Below are positions 10,789 through 62,041 of a stretch of 64,000 bases of DNA, one piece after another. Location of the stretch: the NCBI GenBank assembly GCA_033759635.1, contig GCA_033759635.1_4528.1; one strand, 5' to 3'. The translations under genes and the position numbers were made by a program. Positions within the stretch are counted from its first letter, which is position 1, and each line of letters starts with the position of its first letter. The notes under the pieces were generated by a model. That model searched no databases and was not told the origin of the DNA. It saw nothing but the letters and a program-made list of their open reading frames with translations. The DNA is from a phage.

Positions 10789-10862
10789 GGCCCTGTAGCT
10801 CAACGGTTAGCAGCAGTCCCCTCATAAGGGAAAGGTTACCAGTTCGAATCTGGTCTGGGTCA
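10789..10862 (+). tRNA. tRNA with CAU anticodon (Met, or Ile if lysidine-modified)
   Basis: Hand-folded cloverleaf: acceptor GGCCCUG/CUGGGUC (one U-U mismatch), anticodon stem UCCC/GGGA with loop CUCAUAA, T-arm ACCAG-UUCGAAU-CUGGU; CCA not encoded. Confidence 0.65.
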
Positions 10863-10868
10863 TATATT

Positions 10869-10945
<77 letters not shown>

Positions 10946-55491: not shown

Positions 55492-56127
55492 ATGAAAACT
55501 ACTCCTATTACTATCGCTATTGACGCAATCATAAAACAAGCTTCTTCTTTGGCCGCTATGGCCAAAGTAATTAGTCAAAACCCTGCTCGTTATAATGCTA
55601 TTCTAGAAACTCTTCGACGCCCAGGACTGAGTAATTATGAAAGTCGTGTAATTATTACAGGTGTCGGTAAGAATGCTAATATCGCAACTAAAGCTTCCGA
55701 GACTTTTGCTTCATTGGGTATTCCTAGCATGTATTTGAACACCGGGCATTATTCTCATGGTGACGCAGGATTTATTGCACCTAATGATGTATTAGTTCAC
55801 ATCAGTCGTTCTGGTAAGACTGAAGAAATGATAGGTGTTGCTAAACATCTTCGTATGATTCGTCCTCAGGTTAAACAGATTCTGTTACATTGTAACCCTG
55901 ACATTCCACAAGAATACGAAGCTCTTTTTGATTATACGTTCTGTACCGGTATCGCGGTAGAAGTTGACGAGAACTCTTTAGCTCCGACAATGTCCACTAC
56001 ATTGTTGTTAGCGCTTATCGATACGTTCGCTATCAACCTTTCGTCTGAACGTGGATTTACCTCTAATGATTTCCTTAAGTTCCATCCAGGCGGTGCACTA
56101 GGTGCCATGTTACGAGGCGAGCAATGA
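55492..56127 (+). CDS. SIS-domain sugar-phosphate isomerase (KdsD/KpsF-like arabinose-5-phosphate isomerase core, no CBS domains)
   Basis: VIITGVGKNANIATKASETFASLGIPSMYLNTGHYSHGDAGFIAPNDVLVHISRSGKTEEM and C-terminal LAPTMSTT...FHPGGALGAMLRG align by eye with the KdsD SIS domain. Confidence 0.7.
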   Translation: MKTTPITIAIDAIIKQASSLAAMAKVISQNPARYNAILETLRRPGLSNYESRVIITGVGKNANIATKASETFASLGIPSMYLNTGHYSHGDAGFIAPNDVLVHISRSGKTEEMIGVAKHLRMIRPQVKQILLHCNPDIPQEYEALFDYTFCTGIAVEVDENSLAPTMSTTLLLALIDTFAINLSSERGFTSNDFLKFHPGGALGAMLRGEQ

Positions 56128-56308: not shown

Positions 56309-57997
56309 ATGAAAAAAGCTGTTATTCTTGGTGCTGGATTAGCAACTCGTTTATATCCAATTACTCACCATATTCCTAAGGTGCTTGTTAACTATAAACA
56401 AGACACTATTCTGAGCAATTTGTATACAATTTATTCTGACCTTGGCGCAGATGAAATTATTGTAGTAGTTCATTCAAAATTTGCTGAAACTGTTCGAGCT
56501 TATTGTGAGCAAGAAGGGTTCAATGTGACTATTCGTACAGTTGATGAAGCGTATGGTTCTGCTTATGCTCTTGCTAAATTACACAAAGATTTAGACGGCC
56601 ATAACGTAATTGTTAACTGGTGTGATATTATTCCTGATTTTGGTTCATGGTCTTGGAATGTTAACGCAATCTATGTTAAGGGTGATGAATGTCGATATAA
56701 TTTCGATGGTGAAAATATCACTAACGTAGGTTCAACTGGTGGTAATGTTGTAGGAATTTATCAGTTCAAAGACTGGGAATTCTATATGGGTTCTACTGAT
56801 GAGGAAATTCATGAATACTGCAAAGGACGTGATTTCGTAGAATTCCTTTACAGCGGCGCATTCAATAAATCAGAGCTTATGAATATCATCGACCTTGGTG
56901 ATATGCCTAAACTTGAAAAAGCTCATGAAGTTCGTGAACTTAATCGTAGTTTTAATGCAGTTGAAATTGGTGAAGAAACGGTAACAAAGATTGCTTTAAC
57001 AGAACAGGGCGTTGCACTTCAAAAAGATGAAGTCAATTGGTATAAGAAAGTTAAATCAGATTCAGTTCCACGGATTGTAAGTTATCATCCTGGCGGCCAC
57101 TTTATTATGGAACGCATTAAAGGTAAGCCGGCATTTGAATATATTAAATCCAAATCAAGTCTTGCTCGTCCACAAATTGTTGATGCAATTTTAGATGCAC
57201 TGAAATTCAGCACAGACATGTATTTTGTAAGTCCTGAAACTGTTCGTCGTGATTTCACTAAAGAATTCTATACGAAAGTTATTGATCGTTGTGAAAGTAT
57301 TCAACCATTGATTGATTCATTTGGTAAAATCACACATGTGAACTACACTAAGATTGGACGTCTGAAGCCAATGCTGAAGCAAGCTTTAGAACATCTTATT
57401 CGTTATCATACCCGTTCTCAGGGACAGTACTCTGTTATTCATGGTGACCCGAACTTCAGTAATACTATGATTACTGATAACGGCGAAGTCAAGTTTATCG
57501 ACCCTCGTGGATATTTTGGCGAAACCAAGATTTACGGGCCAAAATTGTACGATGAAGCTAAAGTGCTTTATGCTGTTTCAGGTTATGATGAATTCAATGC
57601 TAATCCGACCTGGGGACAGTTTACTATTGATGAAACAACTTGTAATGTGACTATTAACATCAATCCATTAATTTACAAATATGGAAAGATGAGTTCGTTT
57701 AACGAGTATCATCATTTGGCGGTGGCAATTATCTGGATTGCATTAGGTGGTTATTTCAAGAATAATCCACTTAAAGCGGTAGCCGCATATTATAAAGGTA
57801 TGGAACTTCTGACTAAGCAATTACGCAACATGGGCCGTGTACTTCAAGACGGCTCTATTAGTTATGACGTAGCAGGACCTGTAACGGCTACTCTGATTAC
57901 AAAAAATCCTGGTAAATGGGTACTAACTGATAAAGAAACTGGTGTTTCCTATCGTCCAATCGGTGGCGATATCACTCATCAATGGGAACGAATCTAA
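56309..57997 (+). CDS. bifunctional sugar-1-phosphate nucleotidyltransferase / sugar kinase (protein-kinase-like fold)
   Basis: N-terminus ILGAGLATRLYPITHHIPKVLV matches the RmlA/GlmU-type G-x-G-x-R...K motif; C-terminal half has the Brenner motif HGDPNFSN and the IDPRG metal-binding motif of APH/choline-kinase-type kinases; 562 aa. Confidence 0.65.
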   Translation: MKKAVILGAGLATRLYPITHHIPKVLVNYKQDTILSNLYTIYSDLGADEIIVVVHSKFAETVRAYCEQEGFNVTIRTVDEAYGSAYALAKLHKDLDGHNVIVNWCDIIPDFGSWSWNVNAIYVKGDECRYNFDGENITNVGSTGGNVVGIYQFKDWEFYMGSTDEEIHEYCKGRDFVEFLYSGAFNKSELMNIIDLGDMPKLEKAHEVRELNRSFNAVEIGEETVTKIALTEQGVALQKDEVNWYKKVKSDSVPRIVSYHPGGHFIMERIKGKPAFEYIKSKSSLARPQIVDAILDALKFSTDMYFVSPETVRRDFTKEFYTKVIDRCESIQPLIDSFGKITHVNYTKIGRLKPMLKQALEHLIRYHTRSQGQYSVIHGDPNFSNTMITDNGEVKFIDPRGYFGETKIYGPKLYDEAKVLYAVSGYDEFNANPTWGQFTIDETTCNVTININPLIYKYGKMSSFNEYHHLAVAIIWIALGGYFKNNPLKAVAAYYKGMELLTKQLRNMGRVLQDGSISYDVAGPVTATLITKNPGKWVLTDKETGVSYRPIGGDITHQWERI

Positions 57998-58383
57998 TGC
58001 ACCGTGTAGAAAACATGCTTAATCTTTGTTTTGATGTCGATGATTGTATAACAGAGTGGAATAACAATCGTGATTACGTGAACTTCAAACCAGACGTCGA
58101 AATGGTGTCTGCCATTAATGCCCTGTATGATGCAGGGCATACCATAACGCTTTACACTGCTCGTGGTATGAAGTCAGTAGGTCCTGGTCGTATAGCAATT
58201 GACATTCTCCCAAGTCTGATTCAGAACTTGGCAAACATTGGCTTGAAGTACCATAATTTGCTAACACATAAACCAGTATATGATTGGATTATCGACGACA
58301 AAGCTATGCGTCCTGACGAATTCAAAGCTCTTATGAATAAAGGCGAATTCGAAACATTTAAATCATATAAACCGAATCTATAA
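57997..58383 (+). CDS. HAD-superfamily phosphatase
   Basis: ORF 57982..58383 trimmed to the TAATG-coupled Met; HAD motif I FDVDDCIT, motif II LYTARG, motif IV IIDDKA. Confidence 0.6.
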   Translation: MHRVENMLNLCFDVDDCITEWNNNRDYVNFKPDVEMVSAINALYDAGHTITLYTARGMKSVGPGRIAIDILPSLIQNLANIGLKYHNLLTHKPVYDWIIDDKAMRPDEFKALMNKGEFETFKSYKPNL

Positions 58384-58437
58384 TAATTTAAGTAAGACCT
58401 GCAAAAACCATCGCATCAATTAACGCGAGATGCAAAA

Positions 58438-59598
58438 ATGAATACTTTTAAAATCGGAACGAATTTTGATTTAGCTCTTCTTGATAAAATCGTAGAGCTC
58501 AATAAAACTTATCCTAATAGCTTGATAAACGAAGTATACGGCTCTACAAGAGAAATGGCTTTTGTAGCAGCCAGACCTGATTTTAGGCTTCCTGACGTTG
58601 ACAAAAAGATGTTAGAAGATTACGTTAAACGTTGTAACGAATTAGGTATTTGCTTTAACTATACACTCAACACGATAAATCCTGGTTCAAAAAGAGAACT
58701 AGTCGAGTGGAAGAAGAAAGCTATTCAGGATTATGTTCAGTATCTTTGGTCAATAGGCGTATGGCGTATTACTATCGCTAACCCTGTTGTTATGGAAATT
58801 GTTCGTGAAGTCAATAAAGACATTGAGATTGAAGTTTCAACAATTCTACATGTCGATGCTGTAACTCAAATAAAATACTTACATGACCAATACAATATCA
58901 AAAAGGTCTGCTGTGGAATTCATAAGAACCGTTCAGTTTCTTTCCTGAAGCGTGCAGCAGAGTTTTGCAATAAGAACAATATAATATTTGAAGTTCTTGT
59001 AAATGAGTTCTGTTCTAATGCTGGTAAAGGGTATACAACACATTGTAGTTATCGTGACTCTTGCTATATTTTCCATAGTACTGATGTTACAGCTGATGAT
59101 GCTAAATCCTTAAATGGATATCCAATGCAACACTGCATTAAAGCTCGTGATACAGACCCATTTAACTGGTTGAGAACTCGTTTTGTTCGTCCTCAAGATT
59201 TGAAACTTTATAATGATATTGGTATCACTCAATTCAAAGTTTCAGGACGTACAGGTAGCACAGACTACATTTTGAAAGTTCTTGAAGCATACGCTTCTGA
59301 AAAGTTTGAAGGTAATTTGTTAGAACTGTGGAAGCCTTTAGAGACTATTTTCACTCTTGAAAATGAAACTGAGTTTTCACATACAGTAAATATTGAAACC
59401 TCTTTGTTAGATGGCTTTTTAGAAAAAAGGTGGTTCAGACATCCAGATTTTGATTGTGCTAATGAAATCTGTGGATCAACGTGTACATATTGTGAAAGAT
59501 ATTATAAACGTCAATTATCTAAAAACGGGTTAGCAGAAAACTCTATATCTATTATTGATATAACTAACTCTGATGACGCTCTGAGGTACCCGGAATGA
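58438..59598 (+). CDS. Cys-rich protein, possibly peptidase-U32-family-like Fe-S enzyme
   Basis: 386 aa; clusters EFCSNAGKGYTTHCSYRDSCY and CANEICGSTCTYCERYY; the U32 resemblance is by eye only. Confidence 0.3.
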   Translation: MNTFKIGTNFDLALLDKIVELNKTYPNSLINEVYGSTREMAFVAARPDFRLPDVDKKMLEDYVKRCNELGICFNYTLNTINPGSKRELVEWKKKAIQDYVQYLWSIGVWRITIANPVVMEIVREVNKDIEIEVSTILHVDAVTQIKYLHDQYNIKKVCCGIHKNRSVSFLKRAAEFCNKNNIIFEVLVNEFCSNAGKGYTTHCSYRDSCYIFHSTDVTADDAKSLNGYPMQHCIKARDTDPFNWLRTRFVRPQDLKLYNDIGITQFKVSGRTGSTDYILKVLEAYASEKFEGNLLELWKPLETIFTLENETEFSHTVNIETSLLDGFLEKRWFRHPDFDCANEICGSTCTYCERYYKRQLSKNGLAENSISIIDITNSDDALRYPE

Positions 59599-59834
59599 TT
59601 TCTAGAAAAACTTTTAATCACCAACTTAATGAAGAGATTTTGACTATTAAACTGAACACTAACGAACAAATTCTTAAAAAGGCCCTTATGGGCCTGTTTG
59701 AAACTAAAGCGGCTAAAGCGATTAAAGAACCTGTTCAACTAGAATACTATGCCGACGCATTCCTTCATAGTGTCCTTGGAAGTATTGATGCCGAAGCTCT
59801 ACGTTATATCAACATCGCTAAGAAATTCAAATAA
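59595..59834 (+). CDS. hypothetical protein
   Basis: 79-aa ORF, ATGA-coupled. Confidence 0.45.
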   Translation: MISRKTFNHQLNEEILTIKLNTNEQILKKALMGLFETKAAKAIKEPVQLEYYADAFLHSVLGSIDAEALRYINIAKKFK

Positions 59835-59875: not shown

Positions 59876-60592
59876 ATGGGAAAACATAACACAATGAAAT
59901 ATATTAAAGCCGCAGATTTTCAATCCGCATTTAAAGCTGTCAATCGTGAAATTTTAGAAAACCCGGAATTCGTAACTGATTCTCGTATTGGACGTTGTAA
60001 TGAAATTGGGTCTATGACAGTAGTTGTTGACACTCCATCATCATTCAAAATGACCGACCCACGTATTAATCGCATCTCTTATGAATATGCTGAAGATTTC
60101 TGGAAGTTTATGATTTCTGGTGGTACTGATGCAGAAGAAGCATTTAAGGCATATCCTAATGTCGCTAAATTTATTTCTAAACCAAAATCAGATGTTTTGC
60201 CTGCAAACTTCAACACTTTCTACGGTCCTCGCATTGCGGCCCAATTACCAGCTCTTCTAAAAGAACTTAAAGAGAAACCTAACTCTCGAAGAGTTGTGTT
60301 CCAAATTCTAGAAAGTTCTGATCAGGCTTTGCTTGATTCGGACGAAACACTTGAATATCCATGTACTGACTCGGTAACTTATTATATTCGTGATGGTAAG
60401 CTTTATACTCACTGTCATATGCGTTCCCAGAACTGTGCTGTTGTTATGCAGTTGGATTTTTATCTCCAAGGAAAATTACTTCATTATATCGCTAACGAAT
60501 GTGGTGTAGAAGTTGGTGATTATACTCATACCATGGTAAGTGCCCATGTGTTTGAACGTGATTTTGATTATGTTAAAGGATTCCTTGACTAA
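59876..60592 (+). CDS. 42: thymidylate-synthase-fold pyrimidine hydroxymethylase (gene 42-like dCMP hydroxymethylase)
   Basis: 238 aa; RRVVFQIL and EYPCTDSVTYY...HCHMRSQN resemble the TS/dCMP-hydroxymethylase active-site region; sits between 43 and uvsX like T4 gene 42; lacks the TS-specific GPVYG motif. Confidence 0.55.
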   Translation: MGKHNTMKYIKAADFQSAFKAVNREILENPEFVTDSRIGRCNEIGSMTVVVDTPSSFKMTDPRINRISYEYAEDFWKFMISGGTDAEEAFKAYPNVAKFISKPKSDVLPANFNTFYGPRIAAQLPALLKELKEKPNSRRVVFQILESSDQALLDSDETLEYPCTDSVTYYIRDGKLYTHCHMRSQNCAVVMQLDFYLQGKLLHYIANECGVEVGDYTHTMVSAHVFERDFDYVKGFLD

Positions 60593-61492: not shown

Positions 61493-62041
61493 ATGGCTAA
61501 AATTATTTTAGTAGATGGCCCGGATAATGCCGGTAAAACAACTTTCATTAATGACATAATGGAAATTAGTGAAAGATATGTAAAGATTGATTTCCCTAAA
61601 CGAACAGTTGATGGACGTTTCGATGTTAAGTCTCGAAATGAAGTTGGTTGTTTCGAAACGATGTTGAATTATTTAGACCCTACTAAGATTTATCTGTTAG
61701 ACCGTGGATATATTAGTAACTGGGTTTATGGACGTATTCGACAAGATGCGGACTCGGTTCTTGACGTTTATGAACAGGACTATGTTCGTCTTTGCCAAAA
61801 CCATGATGTGTTCACAATTATTTTAACACGTAACGAAATGACTGAAAGTTTTGAAGACGACCTTATTACTTTGTCTTCATTCGGTTTTAATACAGTCATT
61901 TCACATTTTGAAGAGTTTGCAATTCATAACAAAATCCAAACATATCAATTACTTAATCATGATGGTGCTAACAAAGTTATAGGATTTAATGCAAGCGAAC
62001 GTAATGGTTTGATTACAGAAATCATCAAATGGGCTCGTTAA
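61493..62041 (+). CDS. thymidylate-kinase-like P-loop nucleotide kinase
   Basis: P-loop VDGPDNAGKTT and DRGY lid-like motif; 182 aa. Confidence 0.5.
   Translation: MAKIILVDGPDNAGKTTFINDIMEISERYVKIDFPKRTVDGRFDVKSRNEVGCFETMLNYLDPTKIYLLDRGYISNWVYGRIRQDADSVLDVYEQDYVRLCQNHDVFTIILTRNEMTESFEDDLITLSSFGFNTVISHFEEFAIHNKIQTYQLLNHDGANKVIGFNASERNGLITEIIKWAR

Follow-up and report, generated by a model that had tools for sequence, protein, structure and literature searches.

A U32-family protein in the 5-hydroxycytosine gene cluster of an RB69-group phage is a candidate prephenate-dependent, O2-independent pyrimidine hydroxylase

What does a Cys-rich protein do in the middle of a phage DNA-modification cluster that already encodes a hydroxylating enzyme? 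The question is raised by a gene at positions 58438 to 59598 (+) of the 64,000-nucleotide stretch of contig GCA_033759635.1_4528.1 (assembly GCA_033759635.1) analysed here, hereafter the window, which derives from a T4-like phage of the RB69 group (Mosigvirus). The gene is flanked by those for a HAD phosphatase (57982-58383) and a ThyA-type 5-hydroxy-dCMP synthase (59876-60592), and its RB69 ortholog appears in Lee et al. as RB69p050, gp50 (PMC13326640). RB69 DNA carries arabinosylated 5-hydroxycytosine (5hoC), not hydroxymethylcytosine (Lee et al., NAR 2026, PMC13326640), and the ThyA homolog gp48 makes 5-hydroxy-dCMP, with flavin co-purifying and 18O from 18O2 being incorporated (PMC13326640). 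The answer towards which we lean is that gp50 is a prephenate-dependent, O2-independent pyrimidine C5-hydroxylase, an anaerobic counterpart of the ThyA-type enzyme.

The open reading frame (ORF) starts with ATG and encodes a product of 386 amino acids (aa), which matches the RB69 ortholog (NC_004928.1) at 99.2% identity. The original prediction, which described a Cys-rich 386-aa ORF at these positions, was borne out exactly, and both Cys strings that it quoted were present in the translation, EFCSNAGKGYTTHCSYRDSCY as residues 190-210 and CANEICGSTCTYCERYY as residues 340-356. It had also proposed a U32-like Fe-S enzyme, kin to O2-independent hydroxylases, while calling the family assignment weak. 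We found that the assignment to the U32 family is firm. A Pfam search matched residues 94-286 to PF01136 (Peptidase_U32) with an E-value of 7.3e-11 and 42.2 bits, above the gathering score of 22.4, and a precomputed PF01136 match was present in 117 of the 120 homologs listed. The AlphaFold2 model, built with 103 homologs, was confident (predicted local distance difference test, pLDDT, 93.6; predicted template modelling score, pTM, 0.91) and showed alternating strand and helix elements; its best PDB match in Foldseek was Mk0906 (5d88), itself a U32 protein, and TIM-barrel enzymes made up most of the remaining PDB matches listed. A sequence search of the PDB with the same protein gave no meaningful match. 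The Pfam score, the confident model with 5d88 as its top match and the alignment of Cys ligands described below thus support the proposed kinship, and the family call is stronger than had been thought. The features of the gene are as follows.

58438..59598, + strand: gene for a predicted U32-family Fe-S protein, RB69 gp50 ortholog (ORF, PF01136, RB69 identity, AlphaFold2, 5d88 match, dN/dS)
58717..59295, + strand: Peptidase_U32 (PF01136) domain, residues 94-286, in a TIM-barrel-like alternating beta/alpha fold (Pfam, AlphaFold2, Foldseek)
59011..59136, + strand: putative canonical U32 Cys site, C192, C209 and C233, plus an insertion with C203 (alignment; ligands from PMC6747719)
59455..59493, + strand: second Cys cluster, C340-x4-C345-x3-C349-x2-C352 (100% conserved in 121 homologs)

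Cys residues occur at positions 66, 72, 158, 159, 177, 192, 203, 209, 233, 340, 345, 349 and 352. Among 121 homologs, C158, C192, C203, C209, C233, C340, C345, C349 and C352 were 100% conserved and C177 was conserved at 98%, with C66, C72 and C159 unconserved, a pattern that exceeds chance. When the E. coli UbiU, UbiV, TrhP and RlhA sequences were aligned with the phage family, C192/C209/C233 fell opposite C169/C176/C193 of UbiU, C170/C177/C193 of TrhP and C169/C176/C192 of RlhA, so that, of the four positions that canonically hold [4Fe-4S] ligands in these three proteins, three are invariant Cys in the phage family; the UbiU residues have been shown to bind a [4Fe-4S] cluster (PMC6747719). 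By this alignment, the first Cys cluster would correspond to the canonical U32 site. A family-specific insertion of 11 residues separates ligands 1 and 2; it holds the invariant C203, a probable fourth ligand, and alters the spacing to C192-x16-C209-x23-C233. After ligand 3 the phage protein has C-x3-R, as does UbiU, instead of C-x3-C. The KxxGR motif of a late barrel strand (K-[IV]-x-G-R) is also kept, as FKVSGRTGS with K267, G270 and R271 invariant, its counterparts being VKIEGRQRS (UbiU), LKIEGRTKS (TrhP) and FKIEGRYKD (RlhA). The C-terminal CX4CX3CX2C cluster appears to be an additional conserved site, possibly a second Fe-S or metal site; RlhA likewise requires C-terminal Cys residues (PMC5727448). 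The ratio of nonsynonymous to synonymous substitution rates (dN/dS) of the gene was 0.012 within Mosigvirus and 0.04-0.09 between genera, and the gene is thus under strong purifying selection, also where the chorismate mutase gene described below is absent.

As for its place within the family, the sole NCBIfam match was to the UbiU model, at 18.5 bits against a cut-off of 440, and in the same scan neither the TrhP nor the RlhA model matched. A profile of the target family (hmmsearch) scored the E. coli paralogs TrhP, RlhA, UbiU and UbiV at 15.5, 9.5, 5.9 and -1.5 bits, respectively. Out of 1.84 billion representatives the profile matched only 1,721 proteins, 497 of these (clusters at 50% identity) with E<=1e-30; together with the lack of orthology to characterised members, this indicates that the phage clade is, judged from its sequences, a distinct, sizeable and mostly viral U32 subfamily.

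Many Mosigvirus genomes from Escherichia and Shigella match the segment 55400-62100 at about 97% identity. In RB69 names, the gene order is gp43 DNA polymerase, gp55 SIS, gp52:53, gp51 HAD, gp50 U32, gp49 (a 79-aa ORF), gp48 ThyA homolog, gp46:47 glycosyltransferase, gp45 kinase and UvsX. The gene had been described as embedded in a sugar module, which holds for its position; for its role, context suggests a tie to base hydroxylation and not to sugar activation. The accompanying expectation of chemistry beyond glycosyl transfer fits the modification as it is now known, and since this is a glycosylated 5hoC, a C5 hydroxylase would supply the chemistry that the cluster needs.

Prephenate is the proven oxygen donor for anaerobic UbiU/V hydroxylations, and its chemistry was proposed by the authors to be common to U32 proteins (PMC10990095). 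We found that enzymes of prephenate synthesis accompany orthologs and distant homologs of the gene. A tblastn search with the U32 protein matched 222 phage records, and in two of these the annotation gives chorismate mutase (CM) for a small gene that overlaps the U32 stop codon. In eight other T4-like lineages a CM_2 protein (32.8-46.8 bits; Pfam cut-off 27) is encoded either directly 3' of U32 or after a single intervening small ORF, the pair being present in Enterobacter, Edwardsiella, Serratia, Klebsiella, Pectobacterium, Proteus, Yersinia and Shewanella phages. In Shewanella phage Thanatos-2 the order of the cluster is rearranged and U32 and CM are still adjacent. The phage CMs keep R8, R25, K36, E49, S71 and Q75 invariant, which we take to correspond to the catalytic set of the E. 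coli CM structure. Conversely, tblastn with one phage CM matched 51 phage records, each listed with a ThyA homolog, U32 or both under or beside the match. A hidden Markov model of the phage CMs, scanned against the 64-kb window, found none there, and the 79-aa ORF downstream of U32 is homologous to the small, non-CM ORF that lies between U32 and CM in Yersinia, Pectobacterium and L036 phages; both observations point to loss of CM from the Mosigvirus lineage.

A wider view of the clade comes from about 100 distant homologs (47-58% identity) found in metagenomes, on contigs that are phage-like in carrying DnaE-type polymerase, SSB, SLT and Mu_F genes. Here the neighbours of U32 are thymidylate-kinase-like, uracil-DNA glycosylase (UDG), dCMP deaminase, dUTPase/DCD and radical-SAM genes and glycosyltransferases. 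We retrieved 46 IMG/VR loci, 31 of them distant (22 after dereplication). A Pfam census of the three neighbours on either side of U32 counted Thymidylate_kin 7 times, DAHP_synth_1 and SIS 4 times each, and CM_2, NTP_transferase and dUTPase 3 times each. Searches with the window proteins (phmmer for the glycosyltransferase gp46:47) found homologs of this glycosyltransferase in 16 distant loci, often at position -1 and overlapping U32, AfhE-like genes in 15 and SIS genes in 8. ThyA-type genes were absent within 10 kb of distant U32 genes, except for one weak match in locus L037. With glycosyltransferase and sugar genes beside it and ThyA-type genes nearly absent, U32 appears to occupy the hydroxylase slot in the distant loci.

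In the distant clade (44-55% identity) the link to the shikimate pathway recurs independently. 3-Deoxy-D-arabino-heptulosonate 7-phosphate synthase (DAHPS) or a DAHPS-CM fusion is encoded within two genes of U32 in L004, L035, L047, L049, L060, L080 and L098; the fusions beside U32 (L047, L049/L050, L060, L080 and L098) were confirmed with Pfam, and the enzyme near U32 is a true DAHP synthase (E=1.7e-49 to the P. furiosus DAHPS, versus about 1e-9 for KDO8P synthases). Stand-alone CM genes, likewise Pfam-confirmed, lie directly 3' of U32 in jumbo-phage contigs (L053 and the L055 cluster) and occur in metagenome-assembled genomes (MAGs) of Romboutsia, where CM again follows U32 directly, and of Erysipelotrichales, where it is about 2 kb downstream. 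In all, CM or DAHPS-CM is found beside U32 in at least nine distant loci, and DAHPS is present in only 13 of 50,697 phage records. In a reciprocal test starting from viral DAHPS, U32 was within 1 kb in 6 of 24 loci.

The distribution of the two enzymes over hosts was also compared. ThyA-type enzymes were found in 374 phage records, including those of 57 Acinetobacter and 20 Rhizobium phages; all named or listed hosts of the 222 U32 records are Enterobacterales or Shewanella. In GTDB genomes the U32 clade occurs in Erysipelotrichales, Oscillospiraceae, Lachnospiraceae, Romboutsia, Clostridia, Gastranaerophilaceae, Tannerella and Phocaeicola, with remoter relatives in Ruminiclostridium, Eubacterium, Desulfobacteraceae and Cellulosilyticum. 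The GTDB and MAG lineages that carry the clade are mostly obligate anaerobes. In Acinetobacter phage Maestro and Pseudomonas phage PspYZU05 the HAD gene is followed directly by ThyA, without U32, as is likewise the case in the DLP3 cluster (PMC13326640). The 5hoC cluster is modular.

A mechanism may be proposed from these data. Prephenate would serve as the oxygen donor and the U32 protein, with its predicted Fe-S cluster, would hydroxylate a pyrimidine at C5. The constant presence of deoxynucleoside-monophosphate (dNMP)-kinase-like genes favours action on mononucleotides; the substrate in the window phage would most likely be dCMP, less likely cytosine already in DNA, and dUMP is a possible substrate where a dCMP deaminase gene adjoins U32. 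The product would be 5hoC, which would afterwards be arabinosylated. There would then be two routes to 5hoC, one by U32 without O2 and the other by the ThyA-type enzyme with flavin and O2, much as E. coli has UbiU/V beside UbiI/H/F and TrhP beside TrhO. Given the apparent loss of CM in Mosigvirus, prephenate would have to come from the host enzymes PheA/TyrA. Because the cluster needs a C5-hydroxylated cytosine, the known enzyme needs O2, the host environment is largely anoxic, U32 proteins are the one family known for prephenate-based C5 hydroxylation of pyrimidines in the absence of O2, and U32 genes are repeatedly coupled to prephenate enzymes and to the glycosyltransferase that uses the hydroxyl, an O2-independent route through gp50 would be the most economical account.

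Several observations weigh against this account. In E. coli supplied with O2, no enzyme beyond the ThyA-type one is needed to form 5hoC (PMC13326640), and Escherichia phage JS98 (L069) has a ThyA-type enzyme, glycosyltransferase, kinase and sugar genes without U32 or CM; since an enteric group possesses the pathway without it, U32 is accessory. The window itself is among the genomes without CM, so that the CM argument rests on orthologs. Phage U32 is not an ortholog of UbiU/V, TrhP or RlhA, and its Cys motif departs from the CX6CX15CX3/4C of the family (CX6CX16CX38C in the UbiU variant). In 18 of the 24 viral DAHPS(-CM) loci there is no U32 within 10 kb, which indicates that shikimate genes in viruses serve other roles too. 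The split between phages of aerobes and of anaerobes is confounded by phage phylogeny and could have been produced by a few gains and losses. Finally, no U32 hydroxylase has been reconstituted in vitro, nor is there an in vitro assay (PMC10990095).

These points leave room for other functions of gp50. It could act on the sugar branch, on arabinose-phosphate or UDP-arabinose, or be a generic reductase of an intermediate; the gene does lie between sugar-activation and base-modification genes, Lee et al. gave it a putative label of this kind in their Table 1 (PMC13326640), and TIM barrels are common among sugar enzymes, glycosidases and aldolases being frequent among the weaker Foldseek matches. 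We consider this unlikely, because three known sugar enzymes already cover the path from ribulose 5-phosphate (Ru5P) to UDP-arabinofuranose (UDP-Araf), no characterised U32 enzyme is known to use a sugar as substrate, and U32 is paired with varied toolkits: arabinose here, UDP-xylose in Thanatos, TAGT/GLF in L007 and L043 and an epimerase in L004. The sole characterised U32 enzymes that hydroxylate pyrimidines act on RNA, the CYIFH of the target resembles the CYISH of RlhA and the phage encodes tRNAs, all of which would suit a TrhP- or RlhA-like RNA hydroxylase that makes 5-hydroxyuridine at position 34 of tRNA (ho5U34) or 5-hydroxycytidine in rRNA (ho5C) and tunes translation during infection. 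Such a role is improbable as well: across diverse phages U32 sits in DNA-modification clusters with glycosyltransferase, dNMP-kinase-like, dCMP deaminase, dUTPase and UDG genes, far from tRNA genes (about 48 kb in the window); at 386 aa, compared with 453 aa for TrhP and 653 aa for RlhA, it has no long C-terminal extension; and it is missing from phages of aerobes that have the same DNA pathway.

The loosely bound flavin of the 5-hydroxy-dCMP synthase must be reduced, and gp50, encoded one small ORF 5' of the ThyA gene on the same strand and with two conserved Cys clusters suited to electron transfer, might be the Fe-S redox partner that reduces this flavin mononucleotide rather than itself a hydroxylase. 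That distant U32 genes occur with no ThyA-type gene within 10 kb, and that phages of aerobes run the flavoenzyme without U32, make this quite unlikely. A collagenase-type U32 peptidase, as given in public annotations and by PHROG 5757, is highly improbable. These labels are inherited from the family name, whereas the characterised Fe-S members of U32 are hydroxylation factors; the invariant residues are those of the Cys clusters, not a protease catalytic set (we know of no catalytic residues defined for the collagenase-type U32 protease family); and the context is one of nucleotide and DNA modification throughout. The coupling to CM and DAHPS is left unexplained by each of these four alternatives, several of which also fail to account for the loci without a ThyA-type gene.

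The gene itself is already known. Databases label it 'peptidase', 'collagenase-like protease' or 'peptidase family U32', PHROG 5757 being 'peptidase'. In Table 1 of Lee et al., gp50 is entered, because of its 5d88 match, as 'Sugar or heterocycle reductase' and is absent from the discussion in the text; their Discussion cites the RlhA and TrhP papers as other pathways of pyrimidine hydroxylation, mentioned as using no homologs of the ThyA-type enzyme, without tying them to gp50 (PMC13326640). What the gene does is not taken up in either the RB69 paper of 2018 or the Thanatos paper. A full-text search, not covering He et al. (2026, Nat Chem Biol) or Mahler et al. (2025, Cell Host Microbe), found no paper linking phage U32 or chorismate mutase to 5hoC or arabinosyl modification, and the assignment as an O2-independent hydroxylase appears new relative to the accessible literature.

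Of the systems to which the putative hydroxylase gp50 can be compared, RlhA (YdcP) belongs to the same Pfam family and is required for 5-hydroxycytidine at C2501 of E. coli 23S rRNA, a C5 hydroxylation of cytosine that depends on Fe-S biogenesis and prephenate (PMC5727448). The two proteins share three aligned Cys ligand positions and similar CYISH and CYIFH segments, and RlhA has essential C-terminal Cys residues. However, RlhA has 653 aa and the canonical CX6CX15CX3C, acts on rRNA in 50S precursors and scores 9.5 bits, whereas the phage protein has the 11-residue insertion with an extra invariant Cys, a distinct CX4CX3CX2C and a place in a DNA-modification cluster. UbiU and UbiV are [4Fe-4S] U32 proteins that use prephenate as oxygen donor and provide an anaerobic alternative to the flavin- and O2-dependent UbiI/H/F (PMC6747719, PMC10990095), and UbiU shares the C-x3-R at the third ligand and is the only NCBIfam match. 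They differ in forming a heterodimer with one cluster in each subunit, in needing the lipid-binding UbiT and in acting on a prenylated phenol; in the phage protein both conserved Cys sites lie on one chain. TrhP (YegQ), the top-scoring E. coli paralog at 15.5 bits, is a U32 enzyme of O2-independent RNA hydroxylation. It hydroxylates uridine 34 at C5 in a prephenate-dependent manner and is paired with the O2-dependent TrhO. Its substrate is tRNA, it has 453 aa and the canonical Cys motif, and it is no ortholog of the phage protein.

The ThyA-type 5-hydroxy-dCMP synthases (RB69 gp48, DLP3 gp80 and the HY126 homolog) would be functional analogs, yielding the same product for the same glycosyltransferases; they have the unrelated thymidylate synthase fold, use flavin and O2 (18O2 labelling, PMC13326640) and are present in phages of strict aerobes without U32. 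In phages with a TET/JBP dioxygenase and a TAGT, a base oxidiser is followed by a DNA glycosyltransferase, and since a TAGT directly follows U32 in L007 and L043, U32 there stands at the usual place of TET. TET is an Fe(II)/2-oxoglutarate dioxygenase that needs O2 and acts on 5-methylcytosine in DNA; it has no sequence or fold relationship to U32. Mk0906 (5d88), the only solved structure of the U32 family, is a 247-aa protein that consists of the barrel only, with 11% identity, and is uninformative on the Cys sites.

The other features around the gene are listed below.

55492..56127, + strand: SIS-domain arabinose-5-phosphate isomerase, RB69 gp55 ortholog
56309..57997, + strand: bifunctional nucleotidyltransferase/kinase, AfhE-like, RB69 gp52:53 ortholog, a single intact 562-aa ORF
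57982..58383, + strand: HAD-type phosphatase, AfhF-like, RB69 gp51 ortholog
58357..58384, + strand: sigma-70-like promoter match TTTAAA-16-TATAAT, 10/12, just 5' of the U32 gene (consensus match only)
59595..59834, + strand: 79-aa ORF, RB69 ORF049c (gp49) ortholog, its start overlapping the U32 stop (ATGA)
59876..60592, + strand: ThyA-homolog 5-hydroxy-dCMP synthase, RB69 gp48 ortholog (PF00303; RB69 gp48 experiments, PMC13326640)
60592..61491, + strand: first DNA arabinosyltransferase, RB69 gp46:47 ortholog, 'GT1' (PMC13326640 Table 1; phmmer matches in 16 distant loci)
61493..62041, + strand: thymidylate-kinase-like nucleotide kinase, RB69 gp45 ortholog
Small ORF beside U32: window 59595-59834; L019 5137-5388; L016 5140-5325; L036 11134-11379
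Seg-type endonuclease gene: L014 3352-3990; L018 3352-3990; L019 3352-3990
TAGT/GLF loci: L007 9098-9997 and 13073-14179, with UDP-galactopyranose mutase (GLF) nearby; L043 11086-11976

In promoter and terminator scans of the U32 region, match counts were no higher than chance. The 562-aa nucleotidyltransferase/kinase and the 299-aa first glycosyltransferase are each encoded by one unbroken ORF in the window, which fits the view of Lee et al. that the split ORFs 52/53 and 46/47 of the RB69 reference are sequencing errors. The tRNA genes of the window, tRNA-Met(CAT) and tRNA-Arg(TCT), are adjacent at 10789-10945, about 48 kb from the U32 gene. The HAD phosphatase and U32 genes of the Serratia, Edwardsiella and Yersinia phages are separated by an inserted gene for a Seg-type homing endonuclease.

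Mosigvirus, Yersinia and Pectobacterium phages share a small conserved ORF of 57-79 aa beside U32, which usually overlaps the U32 stop. Its product lacks Cys and matches no Pfam family, and the AlphaFold2 model of the 79-aa product was of low confidence (pLDDT 62), with two long helices predicted. A cryptic chorismate mutase was ruled out for the 79-aa ORF, for which there was no Pfam match at E<=10 and an hhalign probability of 0.08% against the phage CM alignment. By analogy with UbiT, which serves UbiU/V, the small ORF might encode an accessory factor of U32. In Klebsiella phage Biddle_MM4 (L093) U32 is kept; the small ORF and CM have both been lost, and the annotation of the displayed stretch includes no SIS gene.

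Further observations concern the distant loci. On the jumbo-phage contig IMGVR_UViG_3300045988_116618 (191,456 bp; L052 and L079), a U32 cluster consisting of GT1-like, SIS, AfhE-like and U32 genes and a DAHPS-CM fusion gene are more than 100 kb apart, and absence of CM or DAHPS from a 20-kb locus is therefore not absence from the genome. DAHPS-CM fusions without U32 within 10 kb are found in many of the loci L070-L092 (for example, L076, L078, L081-L083, L085, L086, L088, L090 and L091), and phage shikimate-pathway genes seem commoner than the U32 link alone accounts for. The architecture with a C-terminal CM fusion is typical of Bacteroidota. The gene directly 3' of U32 in L007 and L043 encodes a TET-associated glycosyltransferase (TAGT; 33.9 bits, cut-off 27.5), and in L007 GLF is nearby, which suggests, by analogy, that hexofuranosyl or other sugars would be placed on a U32-made hydroxyl. 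A 5hoC modification containing galactofuranose has reportedly been seen in Rhizobium phage RL38J1. On an ENA metagenome scaffold with a Dockerin-encoding neighbourhood (L002, 12160-14360), a second, divergent U32-like gene (21.7 bits, just below the Pfam cut-off) adjoins a radical-SAM/SPASM gene and a nucleoside 2-deoxyribosyltransferase gene, and the first U32 gene is flanked by NT5C, a nicotinamide mononucleotide (NMN) transporter and a deoxynucleoside kinase. This locus may be a module for modification or salvage at the nucleoside level.

Taken beyond the window, a plausible but tentative reading is that the U32 clade represents a widespread, hitherto unrecognised viral, O2-free route to hydroxylated DNA pyrimidines. 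It would be the sole base hydroxylase in phages of obligate anaerobes, where it would feed 5hoC-type glycosyltransferases and CM/DAHPS would boost host prephenate, and the anaerobic twin of the flavin/O2 enzyme in enteric T4-like phages, and it would be the first U32 protein to act on a DNA precursor. A hydroxyl derived from O2 leaves the question of how gut phages build 5hoC DNA in the anoxic intestine, to which U32, with the CM of sister lineages, offers a testable answer. T4-like phages also carry an anaerobic ribonucleotide reductase. If this reading is correct, prephenate-dependent hydroxylation would be extended from RNA and quinones to DNA precursors, and the shikimate-pathway genes of some phages would be explained. 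The enzyme could also give the field its missing in vitro assay of prephenate-dependent hydroxylation, and with it the first in vitro reconstitution of U32 chemistry, because its proposed substrate dCMP is soluble, which ubiquinone intermediates and ribosome precursors are not. Phage-therapy candidates of this group may differ in DNA modification, and hence in restriction evasion, between aerobic production culture and the anaerobic gut, and the roughly 500 sequence clusters of uncharacterised viral and anaerobe-associated enzymes mark candidates for new DNA hypermodifications.

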